Of a stretch of 64,000 nucleotides of DNA, positions 1,193 to 59,502 are shown piece by piece. Location: the NCBI GenBank assembly GCA_963757515.1, contig CAVWRV010000005.1:39870-103869 (forward strand). The letters are read 5' to 3'. Below the pieces are notes generated by a model. It saw nothing but the letters and a program-made list of their open reading frames with translations. It did no database searches and had not been told where the DNA came from. The position numbers and the translations under genes are program-made. Origin of the DNA: an uncultured Acidobacteriaceae bacterium. GTDB taxonomy: Bacteria; Acidobacteriota; Terriglobia; Terriglobales; Acidobacteriaceae. The first letter of the stretch is position 1, and each line of letters opens with the position of its first letter.

Positions 1193-3856
1193 TCAAGGTC
1201 GATTTGAATGTTCGCCGTGCATGACCATCATAGGGTCCAAGCGTGAGCTTCGATACGCAGGAATTGAGCTGGTAAGTAGTACCATTACGGCGGATATGAG
1301 TGGCCCAGTCAACCATACCCACAGCGGTCGAGCGCCGGTCACTCCGGTGTCTCCTTCCAGACTGTTCAAGAGCCCGAAAGCTATTGACGTACCTGCGAGG
1401 CTGCCCACGAAGGTAAGTCGTAAGCCTGTAGCTAGGACGTTAAGAAAAATCTTCAGGCGCGGGGCACCCAGAGCGATGAGAAGGCCCAGTTCGCGCCTAC
1501 GTTGATACTCAGCAAGATTCTGACTGCTGAATAGACCAAGAATGGTGAGTACGGTGCCGACGAAGGCCAGTGCACTGGCGATCAACTGCACGATTCGCAA
1601 AAGTGCAAGGGCAGACCGAGTGAGTTGGGCACCGAGGGTATCTACAGTCGGCGGGGCTAAATCGCGGCGTGGCACGGCCTCGACTCTATGTCGCAATTCA
1701 GCCAGCATTCGGCCATTCCAATTCGGGGCATTCATGATCAATGTCATGCGCGGGCAGCAATCTTGCTTCATCGGAAAGTACACGGTAGGTTGTGTGGGCC
1801 GCCGGAACGTCCCCAACTCCGGAGATCCAACCACGCCGATGATTTCAGTTCGCACACCACGATCGTCGATGATTTCAGTTCCTAGCGGTTTCTCCCCGAA
1901 GTAAAGGTCAGCGGCTTCTTGGTTAATCACGCCTACCCGATACTGATCGGGCGTCTCAGGAAACCTACGTCCAGCAATCAGAGACAGGTCAAAAGCCGAG
2001 AAATAGTTCGACGAGACGATGTTAACGTCTAGCGGTATACGTAGCATGGGCGAGGCGACAGGCGCACGAAAATGTGCATTCTCGATGCGCGCGGTCGCAT
2101 CGGGGCGACCTACGTTATCGTAGTAGATTGTGGGACGTTGACTCTTCGATGCCACCGTCGCCTTTCTCCTGACTACCCCTATGATCTCGACTGGTGTGCC
2201 AACTGGATCTTGAATGACCCTACCGACTGTGTCCTGACCGAAAAGCTCTGCGGCCGCCTCCTCATTCACGACTCCAACATGGGCCATCTGATCTCCGAAG
2301 GAGAAGAGCCGTCCCGCAACTGGATTGTTGTCCAAGACGTTGAGAGCGTCGGGCGTAAGCCACTCAATATCAATCTTTATTTTGCGGAGTTGTGTCGCAG
2401 GCGGCTGGAGTTTGAAGAATCGCCAACCTGGTTGATTGCCAGGGAGTCGAGCGGCCCACGCAAGTGGAAGGAGACCATCCACCGACTTGACCTGTTGCTC
2501 TACTTCCTTGAAATCTGCCGGTCGAGTCAGTGCCTCTTCAGTTAAGAGAATTAAGCCTCCTCGTCCATCCCGAGCACCGGATTGGAGGGCCGATCGTAGG
2601 CTTTGCTGAAGGAAAGCCACAGAGATGAAAACCAGACAGCACAGCGTAATTTGCCCAATGATTATTCCCGCCCAAAGCTTCCTGTATGCTCTTGATGGCG
2701 TCCCCGTTTCGGATCGAAGAATCTCCCATGGGCGATCCGTTACCGTCACGGCGAGCGGCATCATTCCAAAGAGGACGGTGGTAGCTACACATAGCAACGA
2801 GCCCGTGAAAATAGTTGCCAAGTGTGGCGCAAACACAAAGCGTTCTGCGTCCTCCCGAAATAGAAAGATTGGGACAATATGTGCTGTCCACGCGGCCAGA
2901 AGTGTCCCGAAGGCTCCGCCAGCAAAAGAAATGACGACGCTATCTGACAAAAGCTCGCCTGCCAACTCTCTGCGGGAAGCGCCGAGCGCGACGCGAAGAG
3001 ATGTTTCATGGGAACGTCGCGAAGCTCTCGCCGTCAGCAAGGAACCGATGTTGATGCAAGCGATCACAAACACAGCGGCGGCGGCAAAAGTGACTAGGAC
3101 CCTTACACGCGACAATACGTAGGCTGTCCTGGGAGTCATATCACGGAAGGCTACTATGACTATTCCACCGGTTTTACCGAGACTCTTCTGGGCGGCGGCC
3201 TGCGCCTGACTGATTGAGACATTCGCTTGAAGACGCGCAACGACCCACAAATTCCTGTGCTGTGGCTCGGGACCCTGCGGCGATCGATCTGGCGAGCGTA
3301 TCCAAACATCGACAGGGCGATCGCGATAAAGACCTTCCAGACCACTTGGCGCAATCCCGACTATCGAATAAGTCACGTTATCGACACGAACGTGATCACG
3401 ATGGCTGACTAGCCTTCCACCAAACTCACGTTGCCACATGCGATCACTGATTACTGCCCCATTTCCTATCCGCAGGTTAAGTGCTTCTGCAAGGCTCGGG
3501 GCAACGCTGGCAGTGGTTACCACCTCAGTGTGATCGACGATTAAAGCTTCGCTTGGGGTAATGCGAGCAGCGTCAACCCAAGCGAAAGTATCGTGAAGTT
3601 TGCGTAGCCGTTCATAATCGCTCTGAGAAAATGGCCCTGCCTCGTGTAGAGCGTTCTGGCTGTATATGGAAACGATTCTGTCATCCAGGCCTAACGCAGA
3701 AGTGGGGTGAGTCAGTCCTTCGACGAACCCGTAAACAGCAGCATTACTTCCTACTCCAAACGCAATCGTGAGTATGAGAGCCAGCGACAGCCCCGGAGTT
3801 CGAGCGAACGTTTTCGCGGACCGGAGAAGCTTTAGAGCGGCTCGGGAAAAGGCCAT
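1193..3856 (-). CDS. ABC-transporter permease, MacB/FtsX-like duplicated permease (ADOP family)
   Basis: 887-aa intact ORF. N-terminal TM helix after a basic stretch, then two large periplasmic domains each followed by an FtsX-type 4-TM bundle. Typical of Acidobacterial duplicated orphan permeases. Confidence 0.85.
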   Translation of the reverse strand: MAFSRAALKLLRSAKTFARTPGLSLALILTIAFGVGSNAAVYGFVEGLTHPTSALGLDDRIVSIYSQNALHEAGPFSQSDYERLRKLHDTFAWVDAARITPSEALIVDHTEVVTTASVAPSLAEALNLRIGNGAVISDRMWQREFGGRLVSHRDHVRVDNVTYSIVGIAPSGLEGLYRDRPVDVWIRSPDRSPQGPEPQHRNLWVVARLQANVSISQAQAAAQKSLGKTGGIVIVAFRDMTPRTAYVLSRVRVLVTFAAAAVFVIACINIGSLLTARASRRSHETSLRVALGASRRELAGELLSDSVVISFAGGAFGTLLAAWTAHIVPIFLFREDAERFVFAPHLATIFTGSLLCVATTVLFGMMPLAVTVTDRPWEILRSETGTPSRAYRKLWAGIIIGQITLCCLVFISVAFLQQSLRSALQSGARDGRGGLILLTEEALTRPADFKEVEQQVKSVDGLLPLAWAARLPGNQPGWRFFKLQPPATQLRKIKIDIEWLTPDALNVLDNNPVAGRLFSFGDQMAHVGVVNEEAAAELFGQDTVGRVIQDPVGTPVEIIGVVRRKATVASKSQRPTIYYDNVGRPDATARIENAHFRAPVASPMLRIPLDVNIVSSNYFSAFDLSLIAGRRFPETPDQYRVGVINQEAADLYFGEKPLGTEIIDDRGVRTEIIGVVGSPELGTFRRPTQPTVYFPMKQDCCPRMTLIMNAPNWNGRMLAELRHRVEAVPRRDLAPPTVDTLGAQLTRSALALLRIVQLIASALAFVGTVLTILGLFSSQNLAEYQRRRELGLLIALGAPRLKIFLNVLATGLRLTFVGSLAGTSIAFGLLNSLEGDTGVTGARPLWVWLTGPLISAVMVLLTSSIPAYRSSRLDPMMVMHGEHSNRP

Positions 3857-4730
3857 TCACTCTAACTAGCACGTAGGGGACCACAAATTGGCCACCCAGT
3901 CCACTGAGCTAGAGCGGCGCGGAACACGACAAGCCGTCCAGTTTCGAGGGGCAGTGACCATATTTGGACAACTCGGTAAACTGTCGGAGCAACCAGCCAC
4001 CATTGCTTATTGGTTGTTCCTTGAAAACGTTGGGACACCTTCAGACCGGCGTTTGCTGAAGGAACCTCTGAAACGGGGTTTCAGGTGAATTGCCTGGCCC
4101 AGTGCTCCGGCTGGAGGGGAACTTACCGGAAACGAAACTTTTCAGGCAGCTCGCCAAACCTCATCCTTCGGAAGGTAGAATTAGCATCCCCGGGGGAGTG
4201 TGGTGTGAAGCATATAGTCTTTGGCGGAATTGCAGGATACGCAGGATTGATGGTCTCTTTGGTACTAGTCGTTTTTTTTGCGAGCCGAAATGCAGGGCGG
4301 ATCGGGTGGCGGCACCAATCTTCAGGCGACATTGAAAGCGGAACGCGGCTACTACGGAGACTTTCGGCTAGAATTGATAACTTTTCATTTGACGAACCAC
4401 TCGAACCGCGTTCTGAGCACGGCGGAGAGTTCATGGCAGTTGGTGATCGATGGAGAGCCATTACGTGACCGCGGTGGCCAACTTTGGACGGGCCCTCGAC
4501 CGGCAGAGGGCTATGGTTCATTGCCTCCGGGTAGAGATTTTCAATTCGGTAAAGCGCTCCCGTTGAAGGAATACTTTCCCGAACATCGCCAATACGAAGT
4601 TTTCAGGAGAGCGGCTGGCTTTAAGAGCAACACTGTAGTTGTTAATGGGGGCACAGCACCTTAGTTGTTATGGCTGGTTTGTAAAACGGGGTTTTCGGTA
4701 CTTGCCCACCCCGACCGATCGCCTGGGAGT

Positions 4731-5867
4731 TTACCGATACCCGAGCAACCCCTTCTCCAAAGCTGCAGCTTCCGCGTCGGTATCAGTAAACGGGAGCTGT
4801 AGTGCCAGCTTCATCCGCTTCATCACCTTGTCGTCGACCTTCTCAATCTTGTACTCCGCAATGATTGCGGTAAGGATCATCATGTAGAACTCTCCGGCGA
4901 GCTGGAAGTGGCTACCAGCGAGAAGCTCGAACGATGATGCCTTCAAGGTGAAGCCGCTTACACCGGCTGAATGCGAATACCAACTCAGTTGCGGGTAACG
5001 CACCTCATAGATTTCTTCATACGGCATCTTCAACAGAGCGGCCCGCTGTTTCAGGTTCAACCCAGACCAGTGCTCTACCTTCTTCACACCTGGCCAGAGC
5101 TTCGCCTGCTCAGCCGCTACACGGCTTTCGTTGTTCTTGATGAAGTCCTGATGCACGGTCACGTCCGTTTTCGACGTGGGGTTGGCGGCCTTGTACGCCA
5201 CAATCTTCCGCGCTGCACGAATCTTCTCCACGTCAGTGAATGCGCCCACTTTTTCGATGGCATCAGAAACTACGTCTATGAGCTTCATGTCGATAGCCAG
5301 CTCAAACAATGAGCGCGTCACCATAGCGATTGCTTGAAAGTCGCGTACTGTGCGGAGGTTCAACAGGCTTTCCACGTTCATCCTGACTCGCTGATAGATC
5401 GTGGAGACGAGGGTGTCGCGGTTCGTCTTCAACACGATGGTGGACACGACCGGCCCCACGCTCTCTTTATCGAAGACGTTGAGCCCTTTCAGAGAGGTGT
5501 AGTACCGCTCCGTTGCCGTCATCACATCCGGGCCGATCTTCAGTTGCAGCTTACGAAACACACGCATGGCGTCATGCGAGGTGAACTGTCCACGCGGCAT
5601 GCCGGTCACATGCGCGAACGCCTGTTTGATGGGGAACTGCACACCATCCACTTCGACATAAAGCTCACGAATGGATTCCGGCTCTACGTCCTGCAAGCGG
5701 GAGCGAACGTCAGCAGCACCCAGGGAGAACTCGTTTCCGGCTACTGTAAAGGTCATGTTTTTTTCCATCACTATCGCATCACCACCTAATAATATACCAT
5801 CTTTAAGAAAACCTACTATAAAACTGACTTTCGTTCTGTTTACGTCAATCGACTCAAAATGAACCAT
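4731..5867 (-). CDS. hypothetical protein (orphan, low-GC), no recognisable domain
   Basis: 378-aa uninterrupted ORF in a clearly lower-GC stretch (AT-rich 5' end at 5760-5867). Protein-like composition. No motif I can assign. One weak R-x5-H (RGQFTSH). Confidence 0.6.
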   Translation of the reverse strand: MVHFESIDVNRTKVSFIVGFLKDGILLGGDAIVMEKNMTFTVAGNEFSLGAADVRSRLQDVEPESIRELYVEVDGVQFPIKQAFAHVTGMPRGQFTSHDAMRVFRKLQLKIGPDVMTATERYYTSLKGLNVFDKESVGPVVSTIVLKTNRDTLVSTIYQRVRMNVESLLNLRTVRDFQAIAMVTRSLFELAIDMKLIDVVSDAIEKVGAFTDVEKIRAARKIVAYKAANPTSKTDVTVHQDFIKNNESRVAAEQAKLWPGVKKVEHWSGLNLKQRAALLKMPYEEIYEVRYPQLSWYSHSAGVSGFTLKASSFELLAGSHFQLAGEFYMMILTAIIAEYKIEKVDDKVMKRMKLALQLPFTDTDAEAAALEKGLLGYR

Positions 5868-6207
5868 TTATCGGCACGGCAAGCGTACGGGAGACAGTCG
5901 CTAAATCGTATTTTTAAGCCAACGTTTCCTTTTTATCCGTGCTCGCTCTCCTGCATGGGTTGGGAGCAGGCAATCACGGGTGCGGCGGAGGATTACCCCC
6001 TGGACTATTTATTGTGGAAACCTCGGCCCCAATCTTTCCGGTCAAAGCTAGTGACCAAACGACGGTGCCCTTTGAGTCCCTGCGCCGGTATATTCGACTC
6101 ATCCGCGAAGAAGAGGAAATTAAACAAGCACCCAGGAGACTTGGCAGGATCTGGACCGAACCCATATCAGGGGAATACCCAAACGTCAGGGAATCTCGGC
6201 TCTGAAG

Positions 6208-6663
6208 ATGGTTGCCTCTAGGAGAGAGATGGACAGGGAAGAAGTAGCCGAAATCTACGAATCATACTTTCAATTGCAGGACCTACGTAGCTTCGAGGAG
6301 AGGCTATCGCTCCCTTTCGTGCTGGGCAGCGTGGCTCTCGATCCCGCTAACGCCTCGAAACTTGCTGCCGAATTGAATCGTCGCGGCTTGGACGCCGGCT
6401 TGGACGGCCCCTTGTTGCAGGAACGGGTCGCAAAACGGGTAAGCAACCTCCAAAAACTTAAAACAGTTGATGCTCCCGCTCCGAAAACGACGGCAAAGGC
6501 AAGGAACAGGCAAACCGGGCGCGCACAGAATCCATTCCACGATTTCGTTACCAATGAGATTCGGAACTTGGGCGACAAGATAAAGATCGTTCCTTCCAGC
6601 ATCGAAAAGTCACGGTGTGCCTTGAAAGCACTACTCACAACCCGCGGAAATGCGGCGACATGA
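6208..6663 (+). CDS. hypothetical small protein (possibly 3' part of a frameshifted gene with ORF 5939..6205)
   Basis: 151-aa ORF with charged, helical-looking sequence. Its start lies 2 nt after the TGA of the protein-like ORF 5939..6205, which is in another frame. Confidence 0.3.
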   Translation: MVASRREMDREEVAEIYESYFQLQDLRSFEERLSLPFVLGSVALDPANASKLAAELNRRGLDAGLDGPLLQERVAKRVSNLQKLKTVDAPAPKTTAKARNRQTGRAQNPFHDFVTNEIRNLGDKIKIVPSSIEKSRCALKALLTTRGNAAT

Positions 6664-7408
6664 TACCTTTTTCCTACATCTTCTGCGTGCGCACTCCTGG
6701 GCCAAATTCGAAACTGAGCCGCATGTACGAGGCCCGCAACACACGTCTAAGCGTGTACGCCAAGCAACGTATCCCTGCCGCCCTGATGACAAGCAACAGA
6801 GCACTACCCTGGTTACCAAAGAAATCTTCTAACCCTCTCGACGAAGCCCAAAAACCGTACTACTGTGAGAGTAGCCACCCCCATCAGCGCCGTCTTACTT
6901 GACGGTCCTGCCTGGCTTTGCACCGGCCCACTCTGCCCCTGCATCCGCCGCCAACAGCCGGGAAAGCATCAGCGCCTGCCGGCATGATGACGGGTGTAGC
7001 AAACGCGAATGTGACATCGAAAGCGACGGATTCACGCCTGTCGGCAGCGTTTCTGTGTCCCGTGGGGGGAGTCTGCGGAGAGCACAAATCACCGTGCCGC
7101 AACCAGGGTACGCTCAGTGCGTCCTCTTGATTAAGCAGTTTTGACAACCTGGAAACCACCATCGGAGGCCGGTGCGGCGCCGGACTACACGGGCGCACAG
7201 ACGAGCAGGCGGGACGTTTGCCAATACGCAGTGTGGGCAGAGAGATCGTCCCGCTTGCCACCGGACTGACTAGGGGAAAGTCGGACCAGCCGCCTGCGGC
7301 AAGGCAACGTTCTGCCGTCCAAGTTTTGGAGTCGAGCGTTCCCCGGTCGGCATATGATCGCCAAAACATCGGTACGGAGCGGCAAGCCCCCACCTCAGAA
7401 GGGGACTT

Positions 7409-7435
7409 ATAGCGCTTATAGCGCTTTTAGCGCAC
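7409..7435. repeat. tandem 9-mer array TATAGCGCT-TATAGCGCT-TTTAGCGCA followed by T-run
   Basis: Read directly: three 9-bp units containing palindromic AGCGCT. Followed by CTTTTCTTTTTT. Related array at 8742-8791. Confidence 0.8.
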
Positions 7436-7560
7436 TTTTCTTTTTTGCCGGGGCTAAAACGTTTGCGTGAGAACCCCGGTTCAGAATGGAGTCTCAGCGG
7501 GACAGGGCGTAGGGTATTACCACGTTCGTAAGAGGGCATCTGTTCCTTCATTTACGAAGG

Positions 7561-7674: not shown

Positions 7675-8744
7675 TCCAGCTCCGGGGACATGGGGACAAA
7701 CAGGGCGACCTGATACCTATTGCGGCATTTCCTCGCGGAGCCAACAAAATTAGGGAGCTAGCAAGGCACGGAGAAGCTCGGGGAACGTCTGAGGCAAGAC
7801 TGACTTTGGAGCTTGCTATCGAGCAGGGTCGGGGCGGATTCGCCATGATCTCCGAGTTCCGGGCAATGCTGGAGCGCTTCGATTCGGAACACGACCGCTC
7901 CCTTCTGGCGCGGATATTACTTCTTCGCTTGCACGTCGAAGTCGGAGACCGGCCAGATCGATATTGCAGGCTCTACAGCAAGATGATCAAAAACGCCCAA
8001 TTATGGGATGCGCATTCTGAGGACAACGTCACTCCCAACACTTTAAAGCGAACATTGTCTATCACTGTTAGTCGTCTAGCTGGCTCTCGGGAGCAACAAT
8101 TCAAATGTCCAGCTTCCGCGGAGTTTGTTTCCTGATTCGCCGCCGGCACCAATTATGGAGGACGACATCCGGTCGCCCGCGAACTCCGCCGCGCCCGCGA
8201 CTGGGCTACCGCGACTCCCGAAATCCTTTTTAGCCGTAATGCCGCTGCCCGCGAGCTCTGGCAGGACCGCTATCCCGCCTTGAGCCAGCTCCGGCCAGGC
8301 CTGCGGGGCGCCGCGACCAGCCGCGCCGAGGCCCATGTCCTGCGTCTCAGCGCCATCTACGCCGCCCTGGACTCCACCTCCGTCATCGGCCTGCCCCATC
8401 TCCAGGCTGCCCTTGCCGTATGGGATTACTGCTACGCCAGCGCCGCCCTCCTCTTCGGCATGTCTACCGGGGACCCGATCGCCGACCGTATCCGCGAAGC
8501 CATCGAGGCCTCCGGCGACGGACTGTCGAAGTATCAGATCAGGCGTCTCTTTCACGGCCACGTCGAGGGCAACCTTATCGACGCTGCCCTCGAAAAACTC
8601 GTGGCCCTGGGCGGCGCAATCCACGCTCGAAGTGAGCCCACCGCAGGTCGACCCTCTACCCGCTGGTCGGTCATCGCAGAGGACGAACACGAAGAAAATG
8701 AGGAATTGGTAGCGGAGGACGAGGCACCGGCAGAAGATCAGTAG
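7647..8744 (+). pseudogene. ORF interrupted by a single in-frame TGA (8133-8135); 5' part low-GC, 3' part high-GC with strong GC3 bias
   Basis: ORFs 7647..8135 and 8280..8744 are in the same frame. Reading continues through the TGA (…AEFVS*FAAGTNYGG…RELWQDRYPALSQLRPG…). Only a TTG start is available after the stop. The 3' part ends …EDEHEENEELVAEDEAPAEDQ. No family assignable. Confidence 0.35.
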
Positions 8745-8791
8745 GGCTTTTAGCGCTTATAGCGCTTATAGCGCTTTTAGCGCATTTTTTT
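8742..8791. repeat. tandem 9-mer array TAGGGCTTT-(TAGCGCTTA)x2-TAGCGCTTT-TAGCGCA followed by T7
   Basis: Read directly. The first TAG is the stop codon of ORF 8280..8744. Same unit as the array at 7409-7435. Confidence 0.8.
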
Positions 8792-8835
8792 AGACGCTCC
8801 GAGAAGCCGGAGCGTCTCCCTTTGCGGTATTTTGG
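8792..8835 (+). terminator. candidate intrinsic terminator
   Basis: Perfect 10-bp stem AGACGCTCCG-agaagc-CGGAGCGTCT (8792-8817) followed by ccctttgcggtatttt. Confidence 0.45.
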
Positions 8836-10488: not shown

Positions 10489-11154
10489 ATGGATGAAGGA
10501 GATACCAGAATGACTACTTTGGATTTGCTCGATCAAATGCAGACGCACCTCGGTGTGCCATGGCAAAGTCAGCGTGCCGGCGGCTACTCTGACGGCGTAT
10601 TGACCGGTGACCCCTACGCTCAAGTGACCGGTATACTAACCTGCTTCACTCCTACGGTCGATGTCCTTCGACACGCAATCAGCTCCGGCCACAACACTGT
10701 GATTTGCAGAGAATCCCCTTTCTACAGCAGAGGAGAAAAACAGCCGATTGCGTACCGGTCGGGAGCAATGACCGCAAAAGAGTTTTTGGAGAGCGATCCC
10801 GTCTACCAGGCAAAATTGGCACTGATCAGCACCAATTCGCTCATTATTGTCAGATTTGTCGATAACTGGGATGCGCGGAAGACCGATGGGCAGCTCGAAG
10901 GCCTGGTAAAGGCGCTGAAGTGGGATGGATATCATCTTTCCGTGAAAGGCGATGTGAAGTTTTATCGCCCGGGTAACAACTTCTTCAGTATCCCTCCGAT
11001 CTCGATGGCGGCCTTGGCTTCGGGCTTGGGGCGTTCCTCCATCGGCGTAAGGCATATGGGGCACTCCGGGTTCGTGGCAGGTCAATCGCAGGACGCTTTG
11101 TGTGTGACACACTACACTAGTGGGGCGCATCAAAAGCCGCGATTCCCCATCTAA
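10489..11154 (+). CDS. hypothetical protein (weak resemblance to the N-terminal half of Nif3/DUF34, but lacking the HH metal ligands)
   Basis: 221-aa ORF. The last ~30 codons are encoded by an R1-family repeat end (11057-11125). Confidence 0.5.
   Translation: MDEGDTRMTTLDLLDQMQTHLGVPWQSQRAGGYSDGVLTGDPYAQVTGILTCFTPTVDVLRHAISSGHNTVICRESPFYSRGEKQPIAYRSGAMTAKEFLESDPVYQAKLALISTNSLIIVRFVDNWDARKTDGQLEGLVKALKWDGYHLSVKGDVKFYRPGNNFFSIPPISMAALASGLGRSSIGVRHMGHSGFVAGQSQDALCVTHYTSGAHQKPRFPI
11057..11125. repeat. R1-family solo end (ccgggttcgtggcaggtcaatcgcaggacgctttgt…cactacactag)
   Basis: Near-identical to the right flank of the R1 copy at 59435-59502 and inverted relative to the left flank at 12888-12905. 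Confidence 0.6.
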
Positions 11155-12841: not shown

Positions 12842-12882
12842 CCAGCTGGAGGGTCACATAACATCGTGATCACGCAAATGCG

Positions 12883-13150
12883 TTAAGAATCTTGACCTGC
12901 CACGAACCCGGGTGCCCCATACCCCCGATTTCCTGTAGAGCTTGTTGGGTTCCGCGGACTTCATGCGCCTTTCGCATATGCAGCCCTTGCCAGCGCCGCG
13001 TGCAGGAAATTCGGGGTATCTCGCTCGTTTTCGCGAGATGTGGGGGGCGAACGTTGGTCGCCCCTTTACAACCTGGACGGATACCAGTCGCAGTGCAGTG
13101 GAATCCCACATCTCGCGAAAACGAGCGAGATCTGGGGCACCCGGGGTTCT
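12883..13150. repeat. R1-family composite palindromic element, module order L-Y-X-R
   Basis: Outer inverted ends …cttgacctgccacgaacccgggtgccccat / …ggggcacccgggg. Module Y is bounded by acccccgatttcctg…caggaaattcggggt. Module X is bounded by atctcgctcgttttcgcgagatgtgggg…cccacatctcgcgaaaacgagcgagat. Compare 59148-59502. Confidence 0.8.
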
Positions 13151-20443: not shown

Positions 20444-20760
20444 TTGAAGGGTACGGGCTTCAGGCCGTACATCCTCACCGAACGTCAATGGGCTTTCCAG
20501 GCTGCGGAAAAACCCAATGTTTTTGAAGGGTACGACCTTTAGGTCGTACGTAAACTATTGCAAACAGGTGCGGCTTTAGCCGCTGAGGGAACAACTCTCG
20601 CCCCTCCAGGACTTTTTCCGCAGCCTGTTTAGCCCCTGAGGTTGCGAACCAGCTAGCTCATCGAAAAAAAGGCTGGCTAGCCCCTGAAGAACACTCCCTC
20701 AGCGGCTAAAGCCGCTCACCGAGGCAAAGTTTGGCAGGGCTGAAGCCCCGCCCCTTCAAA
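20444..20760. repeat. R2-family composite palindromic element (copy 1)
   Basis: Hairpin GTACGACCtttaGGTCGTAC. Interleaved inverted pairs caggctgcggaaaaa/tttttccgcagcctg and gcggctttagccgctgaggg/ccctcagcggctaaagccgc. Repeated tagcccctgagg. Confidence 0.75.
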
Positions 20761-36337: not shown

Positions 36338-36549
36338 GAAATTCCTCCAAATTTGAGAGTCACGCCTTTGCGACGTGGGGACACCATCGGGCAGGTGCGT
36401 GCTCCGGGTCAAAAGGCAATGCGCGGAATCGCGGCCGTTCCGCTACTTGCCGTCGAATGCTGTGCTTTGCCGTGCCTTCGACGGCAGAGCACGCTACAAT
36501 TCCGGTGCAAAGGGTTCGTCAAGACAGGGGACCGAGCAGGAGATCCGCG

Positions 36550-38601
36550 ATGGGCGAACTATCCCCTGGCACCGTGCCAACCGCCAAAGCCACCGAAGAC
36601 CGCCTGGATTCGTGGAAAGAAATCGCGGCCTACCTCAGCCGCGACGTGACCACCGTCCAGCGCTGGGAGAAGCGGGAGGGGATGCCCGTACACCGGCACC
36701 TGCACGACAGGATGGGCTCGGTCTATGCTTCCCGGGCGGAGTTGGACGCCTGGGCACGGGGCCGAAATCTTCGCGCAGCGCAGGAGAACGGGAACAATGC
36801 CACCGCTCCTAATCCCCCGGCTTCGCTGCCGGAACCGGCGAAGACGATCGCCCGGCCCAGATGGAAGTTTGTTTTGCCCCTGGCCGCGGCGGCAGCCGTG
36901 CTGGCGATCGGTGCAAGCCTCTGGTTGCAACGGACGGAGCCTTTTTGGCGAAACCCCATCGCGGACGCGAGATTTCAGACGGTTACGGACTTCGAAGGGA
37001 TTCAGCAGGCGGCTGCGGTATCACGCGACGGTCATCTGGTAGCGTTTCTGTCGGACCGGGACGGGCAGATGGACGTTTGGGTTACCCAGGCTGGCTCGGG
37101 ACAATTCCACAACTTGACCCGGGGCAGCATGCCGGACCTGGGCAATCCATCGATCCGCGCTCTCGGGTTCTCACCCGATGGTTCTGTGGTCACGTTTTGG
37201 GTTCGCAAGCCAGACAGCTCGAGTGGCGGCGACATCAGTATCTGGGCGGTGCCGACCCTGGGAGGACAGCCGAGGCTGTACCTCGAAGGCGTGGCCGAGT
37301 ACGATTGGTCGCCCGACGGCGCCCGCCTCGCCTACCACACACCCGGACCAGGAGACCCGCTGTTTGTGTCCGAGGGCGCGCCGCAGCCGGGAGGCCGGCC
37401 CATCTTCCATGCGCCCGCCGGGCTCCACTCTCATTTTCCCTCGTGGTCGCCCGACGCGGCTTTCCTCTATTTCGTCCAGGGTGAGCTCCCGGACAAATTA
37501 GACATCTGGCGTATCCCTTCGGGCGGGGGAACTCCGGAACAGATCACGTCACACCATGCAGCTGTAACCTACCCTGTTCTGGTGGATCGGCGCACGCTGT
37601 TGTATCTGGCCAGCGATTCCGACGGGTCGGGACCGTGGCTTCATAGCATTGACGTCGAGCGTCGCATTCCCCACCGGCTGACCACAGGTCTTGACCGTTA
37701 CACGTCGCTGGCGGCCAGCGCCGACGGTCGCCGCCTGGTGGCCACCCTGGCCAGCACCAAGACAACACTGTGGCGAATGCCGATCGCTGATTCACCAACG
37801 ACGGTATCGGCAGCGGCTCCGATTCCTCTCACCACCGGCACGGGGTTGTCGCCACGATTAGCCGCCGATAGCCTGCTGTATGTGTCTGCCACCGGCACGG
37901 GAGAGAGTATCTGGAAGTTTGCCCAGGGAACCAGCACCGAGTTGTGGAGTGGCGTGGAAGCGCGTGTTTTTGGGGGTCCGGCCATCTCCCCCGATGGACA
38001 CTCTTTCGCCTTCTCGGTCAGCCAACACGGGCAAACGTTGCTGTACGTGATGCAGGCCGACGGCACCCACGCCCGGGTCGTGGCCGATTCGCTCAACCTG
38101 CAGGGTGCCCCAGCATGGGCGCCCGACGGGCAATCGATCACGACGGCGGCGGACGATCACGGCTTCCCGCACCTGTTTCGCGTACCGCTCGACGGCCGCT
38201 CTCCCACGGTGTTTGTCCGGGAGTATTCGGTCGATCCCGCGTGGTCGCCCGACGGGCGCTTCGGTGTCTATTCAGGACCCGATATCGGCACCACGCTGGC
38301 GGTGAAAGCCGTCACTCCCGAGGGCGCACCGCGTCCCCTGCCACCCTTGAAACTGACTCGCGGGGCTCGGCACATAGCTTTCCTTCCGGGAGGAGGGTCA
38401 CTGGTGGTCTTGCGGGGAGCGATTCAACACAAGAATCTCTGGCTTATCGACGTGGAGACGGGCGCCGAGCGGCAGTTGACCAACCTCCCTGAAGACTTTA
38501 ACATTCGCGACTTCGACATTTCCCCGGACGGCCGTGAAGTTGTTCTCGAACGAGCGCAGGAAAGTTCCAATGTGGTGATGCTGGATCTTCCCCGACGATA
38601 A
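36550..38601 (+). CDS. N-terminal HTH-like domain + TM + periplasmic TolB-like (PD40/WD40-like) beta-propeller protein
   Basis: Motif LDSWKEIAAYLSRDVTTVQRWEKREGMPVHR. TM (FVLPLAAAAAVLAIGASLWL). Repeated S/W-SPDG PD40-like repeats (AFLSDRDG, GFSPDGS, WSPDGAR, WSPDAAF, ISPDGH, WAPDGQ, WSPDGR, ISPDGR). Confidence 0.8.
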   Translation: MGELSPGTVPTAKATEDRLDSWKEIAAYLSRDVTTVQRWEKREGMPVHRHLHDRMGSVYASRAELDAWARGRNLRAAQENGNNATAPNPPASLPEPAKTIARPRWKFVLPLAAAAAVLAIGASLWLQRTEPFWRNPIADARFQTVTDFEGIQQAAAVSRDGHLVAFLSDRDGQMDVWVTQAGSGQFHNLTRGSMPDLGNPSIRALGFSPDGSVVTFWVRKPDSSSGGDISIWAVPTLGGQPRLYLEGVAEYDWSPDGARLAYHTPGPGDPLFVSEGAPQPGGRPIFHAPAGLHSHFPSWSPDAAFLYFVQGELPDKLDIWRIPSGGGTPEQITSHHAAVTYPVLVDRRTLLYLASDSDGSGPWLHSIDVERRIPHRLTTGLDRYTSLAASADGRRLVATLASTKTTLWRMPIADSPTTVSAAAPIPLTTGTGLSPRLAADSLLYVSATGTGESIWKFAQGTSTELWSGVEARVFGGPAISPDGHSFAFSVSQHGQTLLYVMQADGTHARVVADSLNLQGAPAWAPDGQSITTAADDHGFPHLFRVPLDGRSPTVFVREYSVDPAWSPDGRFGVYSGPDIGTTLAVKAVTPEGAPRPLPPLKLTRGARHIAFLPGGGSLVVLRGAIQHKNLWLIDVETGAERQLTNLPEDFNIRDFDISPDGREVVLERAQESSNVVMLDLPRR

Positions 38602-38603
38602 CG

Positions 38604-38797
38604 GGGGTTCTCAGGCTGCGAAAAAGTCGCTCTCTGGGGAATTGTGGGTGCCCCATATCTCGCGCTTTTTGCGAGATGTGGGAAAGAAACTCAACTAAAA
38701 ACAGAACCCGTCGGTAACCGGCCGCTTTTCCCACATCTCGCAAAAAGCGCGAGATAAGGGGTACCCACAATTCCCCAGAGAGCGACTTTTTCGCAGC
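38604..38797. repeat. R1-related element: ~40-bp terminal inverted repeats enclosing an X-type palindromic module
   Basis: gctgcgaaaaagtcgctctctggggaattgtgggtgcccc (38604-38643) and its inverted partner ggggtacccacaattccccagagagcgactttttcgcagc (38758-38797). Inner module atctcgcgctttttgcgagatgtggg…cccacatctcgcaaaaagcgcgagat. Confidence 0.75.
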
Positions 38798-38874
38798 TGT
38801 TCAGGAGGGCGCCAGGTCAAGAGCACTACAATGATCCTCGGTCTTCGAGAACCACCACCAACTGGAGGCCGCGC

Positions 38875-39861
38875 ATGTCCGCGCCCCGTTCTCATGGACT
38901 CCCCAGCCCGACGGTCTGTGCGTGGATTGTGATTGCCATGCTGGCCATGGTCGTTATTCCGGCGGCCATCACTCTCGAAACCATACACCAACCCGCTCCG
39001 CTCATGCCTGTCAACCAGAACTCAACACCGCATGGGTACACCTTTAGTCTTCTGCTGTTTATTATTCCCAGCGCGTTGATCGCCGGATGGTTTCTACCAA
39101 GCGAGGGATTGCACATCCCTCGGCGCGCGTTCTATTGGACCCTCGGCATTCTTGTCCCGCTGGGTTGCTTGCTCGATTTTGTTTTCGCGCAGTGGTTCTT
39201 CGACTATCCCAACCGTGGCGCAACCCTGGGTATTTATGCCCCGGCGCTGGGTAGGCCCGTTCCGGTGGAAGAGTACGTTTTCTATTTCACCGGCTTTCTC
39301 ATCGTTCTTCTTTTATATGTTTGGCTGGGAGAGTTCTGGCTGGCGGCTTACAACGTGATCGACTATCCTGGCGAAGCTAACAAGGTGCGCCGGCTGTTAC
39401 AGTTTCATCCCAGGTCGCTGCTTCTGGCGGCAGTGCTGATTGGTGCTGCGTGGTTTTTCAAGAAAAATTTTGCCGTGCCGGACGACCGGCCTGGCTTTCC
39501 CGGCTACTTCACCTTCCTCGTCGCCGGGGCTCTGCTTCCGGCAGCGAGTTTCTTCCCGGTGGCCCGGCGCTTCATCAACTGGCGTGCCCTCAGCCTCACA
39601 CTGTTCTTTATGCTACTTGTCAGCCTGCTTTGGGAAGCGACTCTGGCTGTCCCCTACAACTGGTGGAACTTCCAGCATCGTCAGATGACTGGTATTTTTA
39701 TCGGCGCCTGGTCGGGCCTACCCATCGAAGAAGTTTTCGTTTGGGTTGCGGTTACCTACGCCACGGCAATTGTCTTTGAAGTGGTTAAGGTGTGGCTGGC
39801 GTCAGAACGCTCCGTGCGCGACGCTATGCTGGGCACGAAACGAAGGGCCAAGGATCAGTAA
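38875..39861 (+). CDS. hypothetical polytopic membrane protein
   Basis: 328 aa with ~8 TM helices. No assignable motif. Confidence 0.7.
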   Translation: MSAPRSHGLPSPTVCAWIVIAMLAMVVIPAAITLETIHQPAPLMPVNQNSTPHGYTFSLLLFIIPSALIAGWFLPSEGLHIPRRAFYWTLGILVPLGCLLDFVFAQWFFDYPNRGATLGIYAPALGRPVPVEEYVFYFTGFLIVLLLYVWLGEFWLAAYNVIDYPGEANKVRRLLQFHPRSLLLAAVLIGAAWFFKKNFAVPDDRPGFPGYFTFLVAGALLPAASFFPVARRFINWRALSLTLFFMLLVSLLWEATLAVPYNWWNFQHRQMTGIFIGAWSGLPIEEVFVWVAVTYATAIVFEVVKVWLASERSVRDAMLGTKRRAKDQ

Positions 39862-39901
39862 CTTCCGCAAGCAGCTAGGTCATCGGGCGGAGGAGGAAAA
39901 T

Positions 39902-40721: not shown

Positions 40722-41216
40722 TGCAGTGAAGGGTACGGGCTTTACAGGCTGCGGAAAAACCCAATGTTTTTGAAGGGTACGACCTTTAGGTCGTACGTAA
40801 ACTATTGCAAACAGGTGCGGCTTTAGCCGCTGAGGGAACAACTCTCGCCCTCCAGGACTTTTTCCGCAGCCTGTTCAGCCCGTACATATAAAGGAGGCGA
40901 AAACGATGGGCTTTAGAGTCTGCGTGAGAGCTCTGCACTGAGTCTCGAAGGGGCGGCTGAACTTGGGGCTAAAATTTCAGCCGTCCCTGGCGGGACTAAT
41001 CCAGATTCGTGCCTGCTACCCAGGACTATCGTCCTGGGTTACTTTCAGCCCGTCCCTTCGGGACTCGGTGCAGAGCTCTCACGCAGCTCCTTAGCCCCTG
41101 AGGCAAGCTTTTCGTCTGCGATATGCTGAAAAGCATGCCTCAGCGGCTAAAGCCGATTTCGTTCAAAGCAGTTACGTACGACCTGAAGGCCGTACCCTTT
41201 TTAGCCCCTGAGGGAA
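40722..41216. repeat. R2-family composite palindromic element (copy 2, expanded)
   Basis: Shares the first ~150 bp with 20444-20600. Carries extra nested palindromes (ctgcgtgagagctctgcac…gtgcagagctctcacgcag, ccaggactatcgtcctgg, gtcccttcgggac) and a second cctcagcggctaaagccg copy. Confidence 0.75.
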
Positions 41217-45247: not shown

Positions 45248-45790
45248 TTACGACCTGCCGGGCCGAGAAACCAGAAGACGGCCCCCTGAGGCAAGTGTGA
45301 GCCGGGACGGCGGCGAGATCGCACTCAGATTCAACGCATTTAGATGCGCTGCCTCACGGCCACCCAAGACAACAACTGCTTCGTAATCGCCTGACGGGAC
45401 TTCAGAGAATGCGAAGCTGCCGTCCACAGCAGTGCGCGCCACCAGTTCGCCATGTCCGCCGACCAAGTGTATCTCTGCTGAGCGCAGCGGCCGACCGAAC
45501 GCATCGGTCAGAGCTCCCTTCCATGCACTTGCCTCACCAGCCGGCAATTGCGTCTTCAGGTAAACGGACCGTTCATTTGGATTCTGCGTTGGTATGTAAA
45601 CAATGGGGTTTTGTCCGCCAACAACATTCCTGCTCTCGGGTAATATCGCCGGCGCGTGGACTTTGATGGGTTCGCGGCTGCGGCCGGCCAGGGGGGAGGC
45701 TGTCGTTCGCTCGCTCCCACTGAGGTGGACCCGGAAGCCTCCTCGGGCTCTGATCGGGCAAAGAGTAAGGCGCTCTCTTGAATTGAACAA
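45248..45790 (-). pseudogene. partial duplicate (C-terminal CarboxypepD_reg-like domain only) of gene 51589..52545
   Basis: Nucleotide block 45241-45752 is ~90% identical to 51582-52088. The N-terminal 45 codons are unrelated. Confidence 0.5.
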
Positions 45791-51588: not shown

Positions 51589-52545
51589 TTACGGCAACTT
51601 GCCGGGCCGAGAGACCAGAAGACGGCCGCCAGAGGCAAGTGTGAGCCGGGACGGCGACGAGATCGCACTCAAATGCAGCGCATTTAGATGCGCTACCTCA
51701 CGGCCACCCAAGACAACAACTACTTCGTAATCGCCTGACGGGACTTCAGAGAATGCGAAGCTGCCGTCCCCAGCAGTGCGCGCCACCAGTTCGCCATGTC
51801 CGCCGATCAAGTGTATCTCTGCTGAGCGCACCGGCCGGCCGGACGCATCGGTCAGAGCTCCCCTCCATGCACTTGCCTCACCAGCCGGCAATTGCGTCAG
51901 GTACACGGCCCGTTCATTTGGATTCTGCGTTGGTATGGAGACAATGTGGTTTTGTCCGCCGACAACATTCCTGCTCTCGGGTGATATCGCCGGCGCGTGT
52001 GACTTTGATGGGTTCGCGGCTGCGGCCGGCCAGGGCCGAGGCTGTCGTTCGCTCGCTCCCACTGAGGTGGACCCGGAAGCCTCCTCAGACCCGCTCATGG
52101 GTGTATCTGGGGTCGTCGCTCGATTGAGTCGTTCCACCACCGCTTCAATCGGAGACATCCGTCCATTCGAACCCGGGACGGGCAGGTGAGCGATCGACCG
52201 GCTCAGCAAAAATCCAAAGGCAACGATTGTGGCCAGCGACAGCGTGCCGCCGAGGAGAATCGATCCACGCCCTATCGGTTCCTCGTCCAGAACCTTGAAG
52301 CAGGGAATACCCTCGGCATTGGGTGAAAGCGACGCTGCTTCTGTCGCCGCATAGGAGTTCCGGTAAGCCTGCGGGAGTCCGACTAAAACGTCCGCCACCA
52401 GGTCCCACAAGAGGCGGGCCCTTTTGAAAAAACCTGTCTCGTCGCGGAGACGGTCCCGAATCAATTGGAGCGCCTCACCCTCGTATTCCTTACGGAACCT
52501 CGAAGGATACAGACGAAACAGGCGAGTGTACATCTTCTCAGACAT
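51589..52545 (-). CDS. PadR-associated membrane-anchored protein with C-terminal carboxypeptidase-regulatory-like domain
   Basis: 318 aa. Central TM (ILLGGTLSLATIVAFGFLL). C-terminal AEIHLIGGHGELVARTAGDGSFAFSEVPSGDYEVVV. 8-nt overlap with the PadR gene. Confidence 0.7.
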   Translation of the reverse strand: MSEKMYTRLFRLYPSRFRKEYEGEALQLIRDRLRDETGFFKRARLLWDLVADVLVGLPQAYRNSYAATEAASLSPNAEGIPCFKVLDEEPIGRGSILLGGTLSLATIVAFGFLLSRSIAHLPVPGSNGRMSPIEAVVERLNRATTPDTPMSGSEEASGSTSVGASERQPRPWPAAAANPSKSHAPAISPESRNVVGGQNHIVSIPTQNPNERAVYLTQLPAGEASAWRGALTDASGRPVRSAEIHLIGGHGELVARTAGDGSFAFSEVPSGDYEVVVVLGGREVAHLNALHLSAISSPSRLTLASGGRLLVSRPGKLP

Positions 52546-59085: not shown

Positions 59086-59147
59086 CTATTTCCCCGCTTC
59101 CAAGGATACTCGATGTGGCGGATCTAGCCTGGATCGCGCAATGGCGC

Positions 59148-59502
59148 TAAGAATCTTGACCTACTACGAACCCGGGGTGCCCCATATCTCGCTCGTTTTT
59201 GGCGAGATGTGGGGGGCGACCGTTGGTCGCCCCTTTACCACCTGGACGGATACCAGTCGCAGTGCAGTGGAATCCCACATCTCGCGAAAAACGAGCGAGA
59301 TACCCCGAATTTCCTGCACGCAGCACCGGACAAGACCACTTGTGCGCCTTTCTTTAAGGAAAGGCGCATGAAGTTTGCGGAACCCACTAAGCTCCTCCGG
59401 AAATCGGGGATATGGGGCACCCGGGTTCGTGGCAGGTTAATCGCAGGACGCTTTGTTACATCGCGGGATAAACGTGCATCTGTGTGACGCACTACACTAG
59501 CA
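59148..59502. repeat. R1-family composite palindromic element, module order L-X-Y(inverted)-R plus shared right tail
   Basis: Same L end, X module and outer R end as 12883-13150. The Y module is present as the reverse complement and on the other side of X. The right tail ggttcgtggcaggttaatcgcaggacgctttgt…cactacactag also occurs at 11057-11125. Confidence 0.8.

Follow-up and report, generated by a model that had tools for sequence, protein, structure and literature searches.

What kind of element is the long palindrome that separates two genes in a 64,000-nt stretch of DNA from an uncultured Acidobacteriaceae bacterium (hereafter the window), and which type of enzyme could have moved it? A preliminary description had regarded this palindrome, which spans positions 38615-38797 (183 nt), as the third member of a repeat family named R1, with conserved terminal inverted repeats (TIRs) of about 40 bp and the hallmark of a miniature inverted-repeat transposable element (MITE). 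The analysis presented here leads to a different assignment. The inner part of the palindrome, 38646-38766, is very likely a REPIN-like element, that is, an inverted doublet of hairpins resembling repetitive extragenic palindromic (REP) sequences, and represents a gene-less partner or a deletion derivative of a unit encoding a REP-associated tyrosine transposase (RAYT, or "TIRYT"). This reading is preferred because the same hairpins, inverted in the same way, are found on both sides of a RAYT gene whose product passes the respective NCBIfam model. Comparisons were made with related loci, which are labelled L followed by a number and comprise 1.85 Mb in total.

Architecture of the palindrome

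The palindrome consists of two arms of 71 nt each (38615-38685 and 38727-38797), which are 97% complementary and are separated by 41 nt. The inverted 40-mer of the preliminary description was recovered with one mismatch and with its partner at 38758-38797; its left copy, however, is located at 38615-38654 instead of 38604-38643, a shift of 11 bases, and the arms are longer than 40 bp. Chance matches to the 40-mer were absent from 100 shuffles (0 expected). Folding of the intergenic region as RNA yielded -173.7 kcal/mol (z -17) and folding as DNA -92.7 kcal/mol (z -20.8), and according to these models the element can either fold as a whole into a long hairpin or form a "clover" of separate, local ones. 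Of the two mismatches between the arms, one reads as G-T on the + strand. The element is built of three layers, namely a 47-nt centre, two inverted 37-nt hairpin modules with the sequence GGGTGCCCCATATCTCGC-GCTTTTT-GCGAGATGTGGG, and two 31-nt outer arms:

38615-38645, no strand: left outer arm, 31 nt, GCTGCGAAAAAGTCGCTCTCTGGGGAATTGT, complementary to 38767-38797 without any mismatch; apparently composed of an R2-type terminus and, in mirrored form, the interior of an R2 "right end", matching, when read inward, type-R ends of R2 repeats such as those in L017 and L113 (see below).
38646-38682, + strand: left REP-like hairpin module, 37 nt, identical in 36/37 bases to the left TIR of the RAYT gene of L176; free 5' foot GGGTGC, 13-bp stem CCCATATCTCGCG/TGCGAGATGTGGG and 5-nt closing loop; folded alone, -11.5 kcal/mol (z -5.7).
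38683-38729, no strand: centre or spacer, 47 nt, non-palindromic except for a small CCGTCGGTAACCGGCCG hairpin, without relatives in the window or the related loci.
38730-38766, + strand: right REP-like hairpin module, 37 nt, which repeats the left module in inverted orientation except for 2 differences and is identical in 32/37 bases to the right TIR of L176; folded alone, -8.2 kcal/mol.
38767-38797, no strand: right outer arm, 31 nt, ACAATTCCCCAGAGAGCGACTTTTTCGCAGC, which looks like the native right end of a hairpin repeat of R2 type and resembles CTACCCGAGAGCGATTTTTCCGCAGCCTG at the same place in L113/L114 and R2 right ends in general.

The same hairpins flank a transposase gene

RAYT genes were located by tblastn of the protein sequences provided by Di Nocera et al. 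2013 (Additional file 5) against the related loci. An intact unit is present on the metagenome contig Ga0302324_100011483 (L176), in which a 156-aa open reading frame (ORF) at 2766-3236 is enclosed by a left end at 2709-2745, GGGTGGCCCATATCTCGCGCTTTTTGCGAGATGTGGG, and a right end at 3256-3292, CCCACATCTCGCAGAAAACGCGAGATATGGGCCACCC. These arms have a length of 37 nt, are 95% complementary and lie 510 nt apart. The centre of the window element stands at the place at which this autonomous unit has its transposase gene. The encoded protein reaches 97 bits with the NCBIfam model NF047646 "REP-associated tyrosine transposase" (cutoff 80), and the proteins of L131 and L130 reach 96.3 and 99.3 bits, respectively. 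All three match Pfam Y1_Tnp, and the best relative of the L176 protein among solved structures is 4er8, TnpArep of E. coli. The NCBIfam IS200 model scores below its cutoff (41.9 vs 55). The recovered proteins are 62-76% identical to aca645 of Di Nocera et al.

The further gene-bearing loci show the same organization in variants. In L131, the 33-nt arms are 100% complementary, and additional degenerate GGGTGCCCC hairpins are clustered both upstream and downstream. L130 and L129 have a variant stem (GGTCTC) with the same foot in the same arrangement. In L012, the gene is decayed and is preceded by a variant hairpin, GGGTGCCCCATCCTTCGC...GCGAAGGGTGGGAGACCAC, 39 nt upstream of the ATG. An autonomous partner, the existence of which the preliminary description had left to be checked, is thus present in related genomes, with the same ends flanking a RAYT gene in L176 and a corresponding arrangement in L131, L130 and L129. 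Many gene-less metagenome copies retain GTCAGCCATGCCCCTCGGnTTGAAACG, which corresponds to the 5' leader and the first codons (MPLGLKR) of the transposase gene. Therefore, at least part of the family originated by internal deletion of a gene-bearing unit.

A widespread family of hairpin modules

Six module ends in three elements are found in the window, which holds three copies of the family and one fragment in 64 kb. The preliminary description had noted the same inner ends at 12883 and 59148. These ends do recur (13018-13044/13105-13131 and 59185-59213/59274-59302), but the two positions are merely approximate starts of composite elements, and the loops differ, with GCTTTTT in the element at 38646 and TCGTTTTC or TCGTTTTTG in the other two copies. 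The roughly 50-bp centre was correctly described as divergent, being unrelated to the other two copies in the window and to the related loci. The fragment is a solo right end of a RAYT-type doublet, ATATGGGGCACTCCGGGTTCGTGGCAGGTCAATCGCAGGACGCTTTGT, at 11054-11101, which matches 59405-59456 and is located just upstream of a methionine sulfoxide reductase gene.

Outside the window, the hairpin pattern was found in genome contigs at more than 112 loci among the matches listed, almost all of them in metagenome-assembled genomes (MAGs) of uncultured Acidobacteriaceae. The exact variant with the GCTTTTT loop occurs in at least 120 metagenome stretches, and a scan of viral contigs gave 9 stretches with the hairpin. 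This distribution fits the sole Rfam match in the window, Acido-Lenti-1, and the neighbouring genes, both of which point to Acidobacteria. In an alignment of 35 doublets, conserved 46-nt inverted ends, GGGTGCCCCAYATCTCGC-TCGTTTTTC-GCGAGATGTGGGATACCAC, enclose a freely varying centre of about 50 nt, and the foot reads GGGTGC(CCC) in all aligned copies. The view that conserved inverted ends around a variable centre mark a mobile-looking family therefore holds for the inner module. The hairpin sequence was not found in the literature on this topic.

Copies are located between convergent, divergent and co-directional gene pairs, and the genes next to them are unrelated housekeeping genes. ORFs that recur beside copies are only housekeeping paralogues (Iso_dh, SDR, GFO/IDH, MR_MLE and others), and no DDE transposase is among them. 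Singlets are produced by deletion between 12-nt direct repeats, and orthologous loci in other MAGs contain the module in differing states of decay. According to Bertels & Rainey 2011 (PMC3116915), REPINs are characterized by REP units paired in inverted orientation, by a fold into a long hairpin, by changes on one side that are compensated on the other, and by single units that derive from the decay of doublets. This family displays all four hallmarks.

The same 21-nt hairpin, ATCTCGCGCTTTTTGCGAGAT, also occurs in two unrelated recurring contexts in metagenome contigs (L139, L145, L148, L156, L158, L159, L170, L180 and L191), namely GTGGGAATGTGGGA|hairpin|TTCCAAGGGRCGGTGGAAAG and CGCGCCGCGCGAWCA|hairpin|TGCRAAAYCGCGCG. 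Judged by these contexts, this suggests that other conserved elements are built on the same stem-loop.

"R1" elements are composites of the module and a MITE

The two elements that had been named R1 are copies of the same module family, each of which is interrupted by a second element, Y:

12910-13142, no strand: second copy of the module family in the window, part of an "R1" element, with a 95-nt Y at 12922-13016 inside the left module.
59175-59422, no strand: third copy of the module family in the window, part of an "R1" element, with a 107-nt Y at 59303-59409 inside the right module.

With a length of about 108 nt (95-108 nt), Y is a MITE that has the inverted ends CCCCGRATTTCCTG...CAGGAAATYCGGGG and an internal hairpin, GCGCCTTTC...GAAAGGCGC. 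In both window copies it is inserted at the TA of CCCCA-TA-TCTCGC. In general, Y prefers the stem of the RAYT-type hairpin, CCCCAYA|TCTCGC, where it generates a 2-bp TA/TG duplication. This is documented by an orthologous pair with an empty site in L095 (about 4459-4476), GCGAGATGTGGGGCACCC, and a filled site in L108 (5700-5807), GCGAGATG-[Y]-TGTGGGGCACCC, including the 2-bp duplication. Y is also present outside modules and was found at further loci (L008, L068, L092, L101 and L124). A transposase of Y was not found.

Since Y interrupts the module in both cases, "R1" has to be regarded as a composite of the module family and Y, and the palindrome at 38615-38797 is not a third R1. Both "R1" copies carry the standard outer arms (TTGACCTGCCACGAACCC). 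The outer sequence of R1, GATCRCGCAA..AAGAATCTTGACCTRCYACGAACCC, is found at 12868-12912 and 59132-59176 but not at 38615-38797, where GATCACGCAAATGCG...TTGACCTGCCACGAACCC is likewise missing. The sole stretch outside the hairpin that the palindrome shares with R1 is GGGTGCCCCATA, and this is itself part of the module. The converse view, in which the hairpin would have been inserted into a pre-existing R1, was rejected: the intact hairpin, GGGTGCCCC...GGGGCACCC, is common elsewhere, and the L095/L108 pair shows that Y inserts into the hairpin.

Origin of the outer arms

While the modules are conserved, the outer 31 nt were found in this copy only. Outer-arm 20-mers had 0 matches in genome contigs and 0 in metagenome contigs, and no sequence within 4 mismatches of the arm occurs in the related loci; the window contains two such arms, both belonging to this element. 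The outer arms therefore cannot be the conserved ends of the family, and the idea of conserved TIRs of about 40 bp has to be abandoned.

The similarity of the outer arms to the stem of the R2 repeats, which had been noticed in the preliminary description, proved to be real, as the outer GCTGCGAAAAA matches the R2-family end GCTGCGGAAAAA. R2 elements with the ends GCTGCGGAAAAA/TTTTTCCGCAGC are located in the window at 20498-20627 and 40745-40873, and copies exist in other MAGs. Their interiors are asymmetric, with AAAAACCCAATG or AATCATG when read inward from one side ("type L") and AAAAAGTCCTGG, GTCGCTG or TCGCTCTC when read inward from the other ("type R"). Both arms of the palindrome read inward as type R (GTCGCTCTCTGGGG...), and both share the same one-base deletion relative to GCTGCGGAAAAA. 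These two features suggest that one R2 end was mirrored onto the other side of the module, an account of the outer arms that, judged by these sequences, we regard as evenly balanced. Strand switching on a hairpin during replication, known as quasipalindrome correction, would be the simplest process for such mirroring.

The R2 family itself has a length of about 125 nt and is bounded by (C/G)AGGCTGCGGAAAAA...TTTTTCCGCAGCCT(G/C), with reverse-complement ends at 20624 and 40870. It also occurs in L049, L060 and L113-L115 and thus in several Acidobacteriaceae MAGs. Its asymmetric interiors are built of smaller hairpin modules, e.g. GAAGGGTACGRCCTTTAGGYCGTAC and GCGGCTTTAGCCGCTGAGGGA.

Mirrored flanks are a property of the family

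Mirrored flanks are not restricted to the window copy. In 40 doublets, complementarity past GGGTGCCCC extends over a median of 18.5 nt within a copy, as opposed to 1 nt when left and right flanks of different copies are combined. At positions -6 to -1, arm-to-arm identity amounts to 0.70 within a copy versus 0.35 between left arms of different copies. When 34 copies are aligned without gaps, the score for covariation reaches 0.399, compared with 0.156 in shuffled alignments (reached in 0/500) and at most 0.156 with the partner slid, and 283 cells are changed on both sides versus 128.5 expected from shuffles (0/500). At the Y/R position of CCCCAYA, a CG pair is found in 17 copies and a UA pair in 11. 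Some outer arms are common to subfamilies and always located beside the module (CTGGTTCCCAGACGAAGG and TCCCTGCCACGAAYYC), and others are private. The arms of the orthologous pair L055/L063 diverge independently, and homogenisation is therefore not continuous.

Paired changes of this kind were attributed to selection for the stem by Bertels & Rainey 2011. It is conceivable, if rather doubtful, that the mirrored flanks, which are specific to each copy and are present here and in most members of the family, are instead a by-product of RAYT-associated copying of the doublet and are due neither to stem selection nor to inheritance within subfamilies. If this were true, copying would include a step, primed by a hairpin or involving a strand switch, in which one flank is duplicated on the other side, each insertion "palindromising" its neighbourhood, and insertion could convert resident sequence, here the end of an R2 repeat, into new arm sequence.

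The orthologous pair (L055, 4440-4700, and L063, 2490-2700 on the reverse strand) stems from MAGs with an identity of about 96%, and both loci have a palindrome, CCACTACGC-TA-GCGTAGTGG, the arms of which measure about 49 nt. The cargo at its central TA differs: one is an element of about 190 nt with the ends CCCCGCTTTTGCTTTGTATCAGGGCCCGAC, and the other is a RAYT-type doublet between a pair of Y-type ends. The centres of palindromes seem to be hot spots of insertion.

The locus in the window and in its closest relatives

The element occupies the 273-nt gap between two genes on the + strand:

36457-38601, + strand: gene for a PD40/TolB-like beta-propeller protein (Pfam PD40), homologues of which have 683 aa and 84% identity.
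38875-39861, + strand: ORF of 328 aa whose product would span the membrane several times (about 7 hydrophobic segments), without a Pfam match and lacking at this position in the closest relatives.

The location between a TolB-like gene and a gene for a membrane protein had thus been recognized correctly. The stop codon of the upstream gene (38601) lies 13 nt before the element. The true start of this gene is probably about 30 codons further in, and an exact-protein look-up of the 714-aa ORF returned no record.

The genes near the element are 92-94% identical in DNA to MAG contigs from the European Nucleotide Archive (ENA), which represent the closest relatives. In these relatives, the module is absent. 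Directly after the stop codon of the gene for the TolB-like protein (84% identical), L113 and L114 have an R2-type hairpin without the module, GCTGCGGAA-CTACCCGAGAGCGATTTTTCCGCAGCCTG, and L115 has an R2-type left end only. On these sequences, parsimony would favour a gain of the module in the lineage of the window. The downstream region is also rearranged, and the comparison with L113-L115 therefore does not provide a clean empty site. The element marks the very point at which synteny with the closest relatives is lost (window 38626-39895 vs L113 7073-10278 and L115 7063-10166), and the relatives have a glycoside hydrolase gene (GH106) on the opposite strand in place of the element and the 328-aa membrane ORF. 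Synteny resumes at a glutathione peroxidase gene. In L114, a group II intron-type reverse transcriptase is inserted in the same gap.

Proposed mechanism and alternative explanations

Mobilisation of the doublet and its route via single-stranded DNA are proposed by analogy. In single-stranded DNA, e.g. at a replication fork, each module would fold into a 13-bp hairpin with the GGGTGC foot remaining free. A RAYT acting in trans would recognise hairpin and foot and cut beside them, as IS200/IS605-type enzymes do. Movement or copying of the doublet would follow, without a target-site duplication. In the present case, the module would have come to lie inside an R2-type hairpin repeat just 3' of the TolB-like gene. 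The right-end sequence of R2 would subsequently have been mirrored leftward by hairpin-templated strand switching during replication, giving rise to the 71-bp arms, with the terminal repeat of R2 offering homology for the return to the template. The established element probably serves no dedicated function. If it is co-transcribed with the upstream gene, it would provide the transcript with a very stable 3' hairpin.

Several points weigh against the assignment of this copy to the REPIN/RAYT class. The 64-kb window is without a RAYT gene and its own genome is missing from all collections that were searched or is masked there, and the cognate enzyme of the palindrome is therefore deduced from relatives. 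The foot is GGGTGC(CCC) and not the GTAG of classical REPs. As its outer arms and its centre are unique, this copy may be an immobile dead end. Neither a transposition intermediate nor a clean empty/filled pair was obtained for the module, and the comparison with L113-L115 is blurred by the larger rearrangement downstream. In addition, the element may have a role at the RNA level.

The assignment of the palindrome as a classical MITE would mean that it is a deletion derivative of a DDE insertion sequence, moved by cut-and-paste, and that the outer repeats of about 40 bp serve as transposase-binding ends. Inverted ends, small size, high copy number and intergenic location agree with this, and with Y (108 nt, 2-bp TA/TG duplication in L108 vs L095) a genuine MITE exists in these genomes. 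The outer 31 nt are private to this copy, however, and the conserved part is the internal hairpin, which flanks a Y1/HUH gene and not a DDE gene; a DDE transposase does not recur beside copies. Direct repeats were not found at the outer boundaries of clear cases among the flanks of 40 copies, for which a clean empty site was not available, and these flanks are inverted instead of direct. As no target-site duplication was seen, cut-and-paste transposition of a MITE does not account for the module, and taken together, a classical MITE is a very improbable explanation. The palindrome could also have arrived as a block, in which case all 183 nt including the R2-type arms would move together and represent a rare subfamily. 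That outer arms are able to move along with the module is shown by those shared within subfamilies (CTGGTTCCCAGACGAAGG, TCCCTGCCACGAAYYC) and by the complementarity, within copies, of the flanks beyond the module. But the outer arm of this element (GTCGCTCTCTGGGGAATTGT) was found nowhere else, which leaves the block unsupported, and the relatives already have an R2-type hairpin exactly here after the stop codon. Moreover, the interior found in both arms is that of one and the same R2 end, unlike the architecture of R2. Arrival as a block is thus unlikely.

A functional or cis-acting RNA, such as a 3'-end stabiliser, an RNase III site, a terminator of the TolB-like gene or a small RNA gene, is suggested by the very stable predicted hairpin, by its start 13 nt past a stop codon between genes on the same strand, by the G-T mismatch on the + strand and by the covariation of flank pairing across copies. 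No Rfam family was assigned to the element at the gathering score, and a permissive threshold gave matches to microRNA precursors alone, which are far below the gathering score and are spurious for any long hairpin. A search for terminator-like sites at the element was negative, and there is no T-run. Copies are found in every orientation of neighbouring genes, the element favours neither strand because it is symmetric, the same site in close relatives is without it, and copies are freely eroded by deletions. Moreover, a transposase gene is enclosed by these ends. In view of this, selection for an RNA function is a remote explanation, although a side effect on mRNA stability is possible and would be compatible with an origin as a REPIN-like doublet.

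Other repeats in the window

The Rfam family Acido-Lenti-1 RNA (RF01687) matches the window at 41019-41065, within an inverted repeat (40920-40956/41050-41086). In L076, two matches at 5235-5280 (- strand) and 6205-6250 (+ strand) reach 53.7 and 53.2 bits and are part of a 47-nt inverted repeat with 98% complementarity. This repeat surrounds a gene for an aba1552-like Y1 transposase (5474-5987), which is frameshifted in the MAG; aba1552 is named a REP-associated tyrosine transposase by NCBI. The Acido-Lenti-1 motif was described solely as a probable RNA (Weinberg 2010). From its position, this motif may be the REP or TIR belonging to a second clade of RAYTs and not a small RNA. Since a look-up of the aba1552 protein of K. 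versatilis found no record, this lead is based on one locus.

A direct repeat of about 490 nt is present at 45253-45744 and 51597-52086, the two copies being 93-98% identical and 6.3 kb apart. Furthermore, there are two short arrays of a 9-nt unit (CTTATAGCG/CTTTTAGCG) at 7397-7448 and 8738-8798, which are 1.3 kb apart.

Significance and comparison with known systems

RAYT/REPIN systems are familiar, and tyrosine transposases enclosed by TIRs were described from cultured Acidobacteria as early as 2013 (PMC3733652). The element therefore reveals no new kind of biology; its nesting and its mirrored arms are mildly unusual. With its assignment to the REPIN/RAYT class, an abundant and hitherto unnamed intergenic repeat of soil Acidobacteriaceae is placed, and three palindromes of the window are accounted for. 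It also corrects the scheme of repeats, with "R1" being the module plus the MITE Y and the copy at 38615 being the module inside R2. For annotation, it is relevant that palindromes with 70-bp stems break assemblies, seed false ORFs and false RNA matches, and mark rearrangement-prone spots; here, gene order compared with close relatives changes exactly at the element. The system could also help to test ideas on the long-term co-evolution of REPINs and RAYTs, as it represents a second population of REPINs that is phylogenetically remote and clearly originated by internal deletion.

The similarities to other classes of small elements are partial. IS200/IS605 elements and their PATE derivatives likewise depend on a Y1/HUH transposase and on sub-terminal hairpins in single-stranded DNA and cause no target-site duplication, but their ends are two different hairpins, whereas the ends described here are inverted copies of one. 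MITEs of the Correia/NEMIS, ERIC and RUP types are also small intergenic repeats with inverted ends that form long hairpins when transcribed. In contrast to the module, they duplicate TA and derive from DDE insertion sequences, which fits the 108-nt Y of the window. An integron attC-like site was rejected, as the R'/R'' boxes do not fit and the copies are dispersed and not arrayed.

Closer is the resemblance to the "TIRtrons" or TIRYT units that Di Nocera, De Gregorio & Rocco 2013 (PMC3733652) described for T. saanensis, A. capsulatum, G. mallensis and K. versatilis. These have long TIRs, some of which are self-complementary and repeated genome-wide as singles, dimers or groups. The TIR sequences are contained in a figure of that article, and the likeness to the GGGTGCCCC...ATCTCGC hairpin is drawn from proteins and descriptions. 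The motif GGGGWSAS given there does not fit GGGGCACC, and neither nesting in other repeats nor copy-specific mirrored flanks are described.

With REPINs and their RAYTs, the element shares two short palindromes in inverted orientation (38646-38682 and 38730-38766) around a variable spacer (47 nt), the folding of the whole into a long hairpin, the very many extragenic copies and the association of the same units with a single-domain Y1/HUH transposase in related genomes. It differs in that its host belongs to the Acidobacteriaceae and not to the Gammaproteobacteria and in that its units have 37 nt and the GGGTGC(CCC) foot, while GTAG at the 5' foot of a 20-40-nt palindrome, the feature of classical REPs, is absent. 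The doublet is longer, with about 120-150 nt, or about 190 nt including outer arms. Many copies keep the first codons of the transposase gene, which indicates a MITE-like origin by internal deletion, and the window copy is nested in another repeat, from which it has foreign, mirrored arms.

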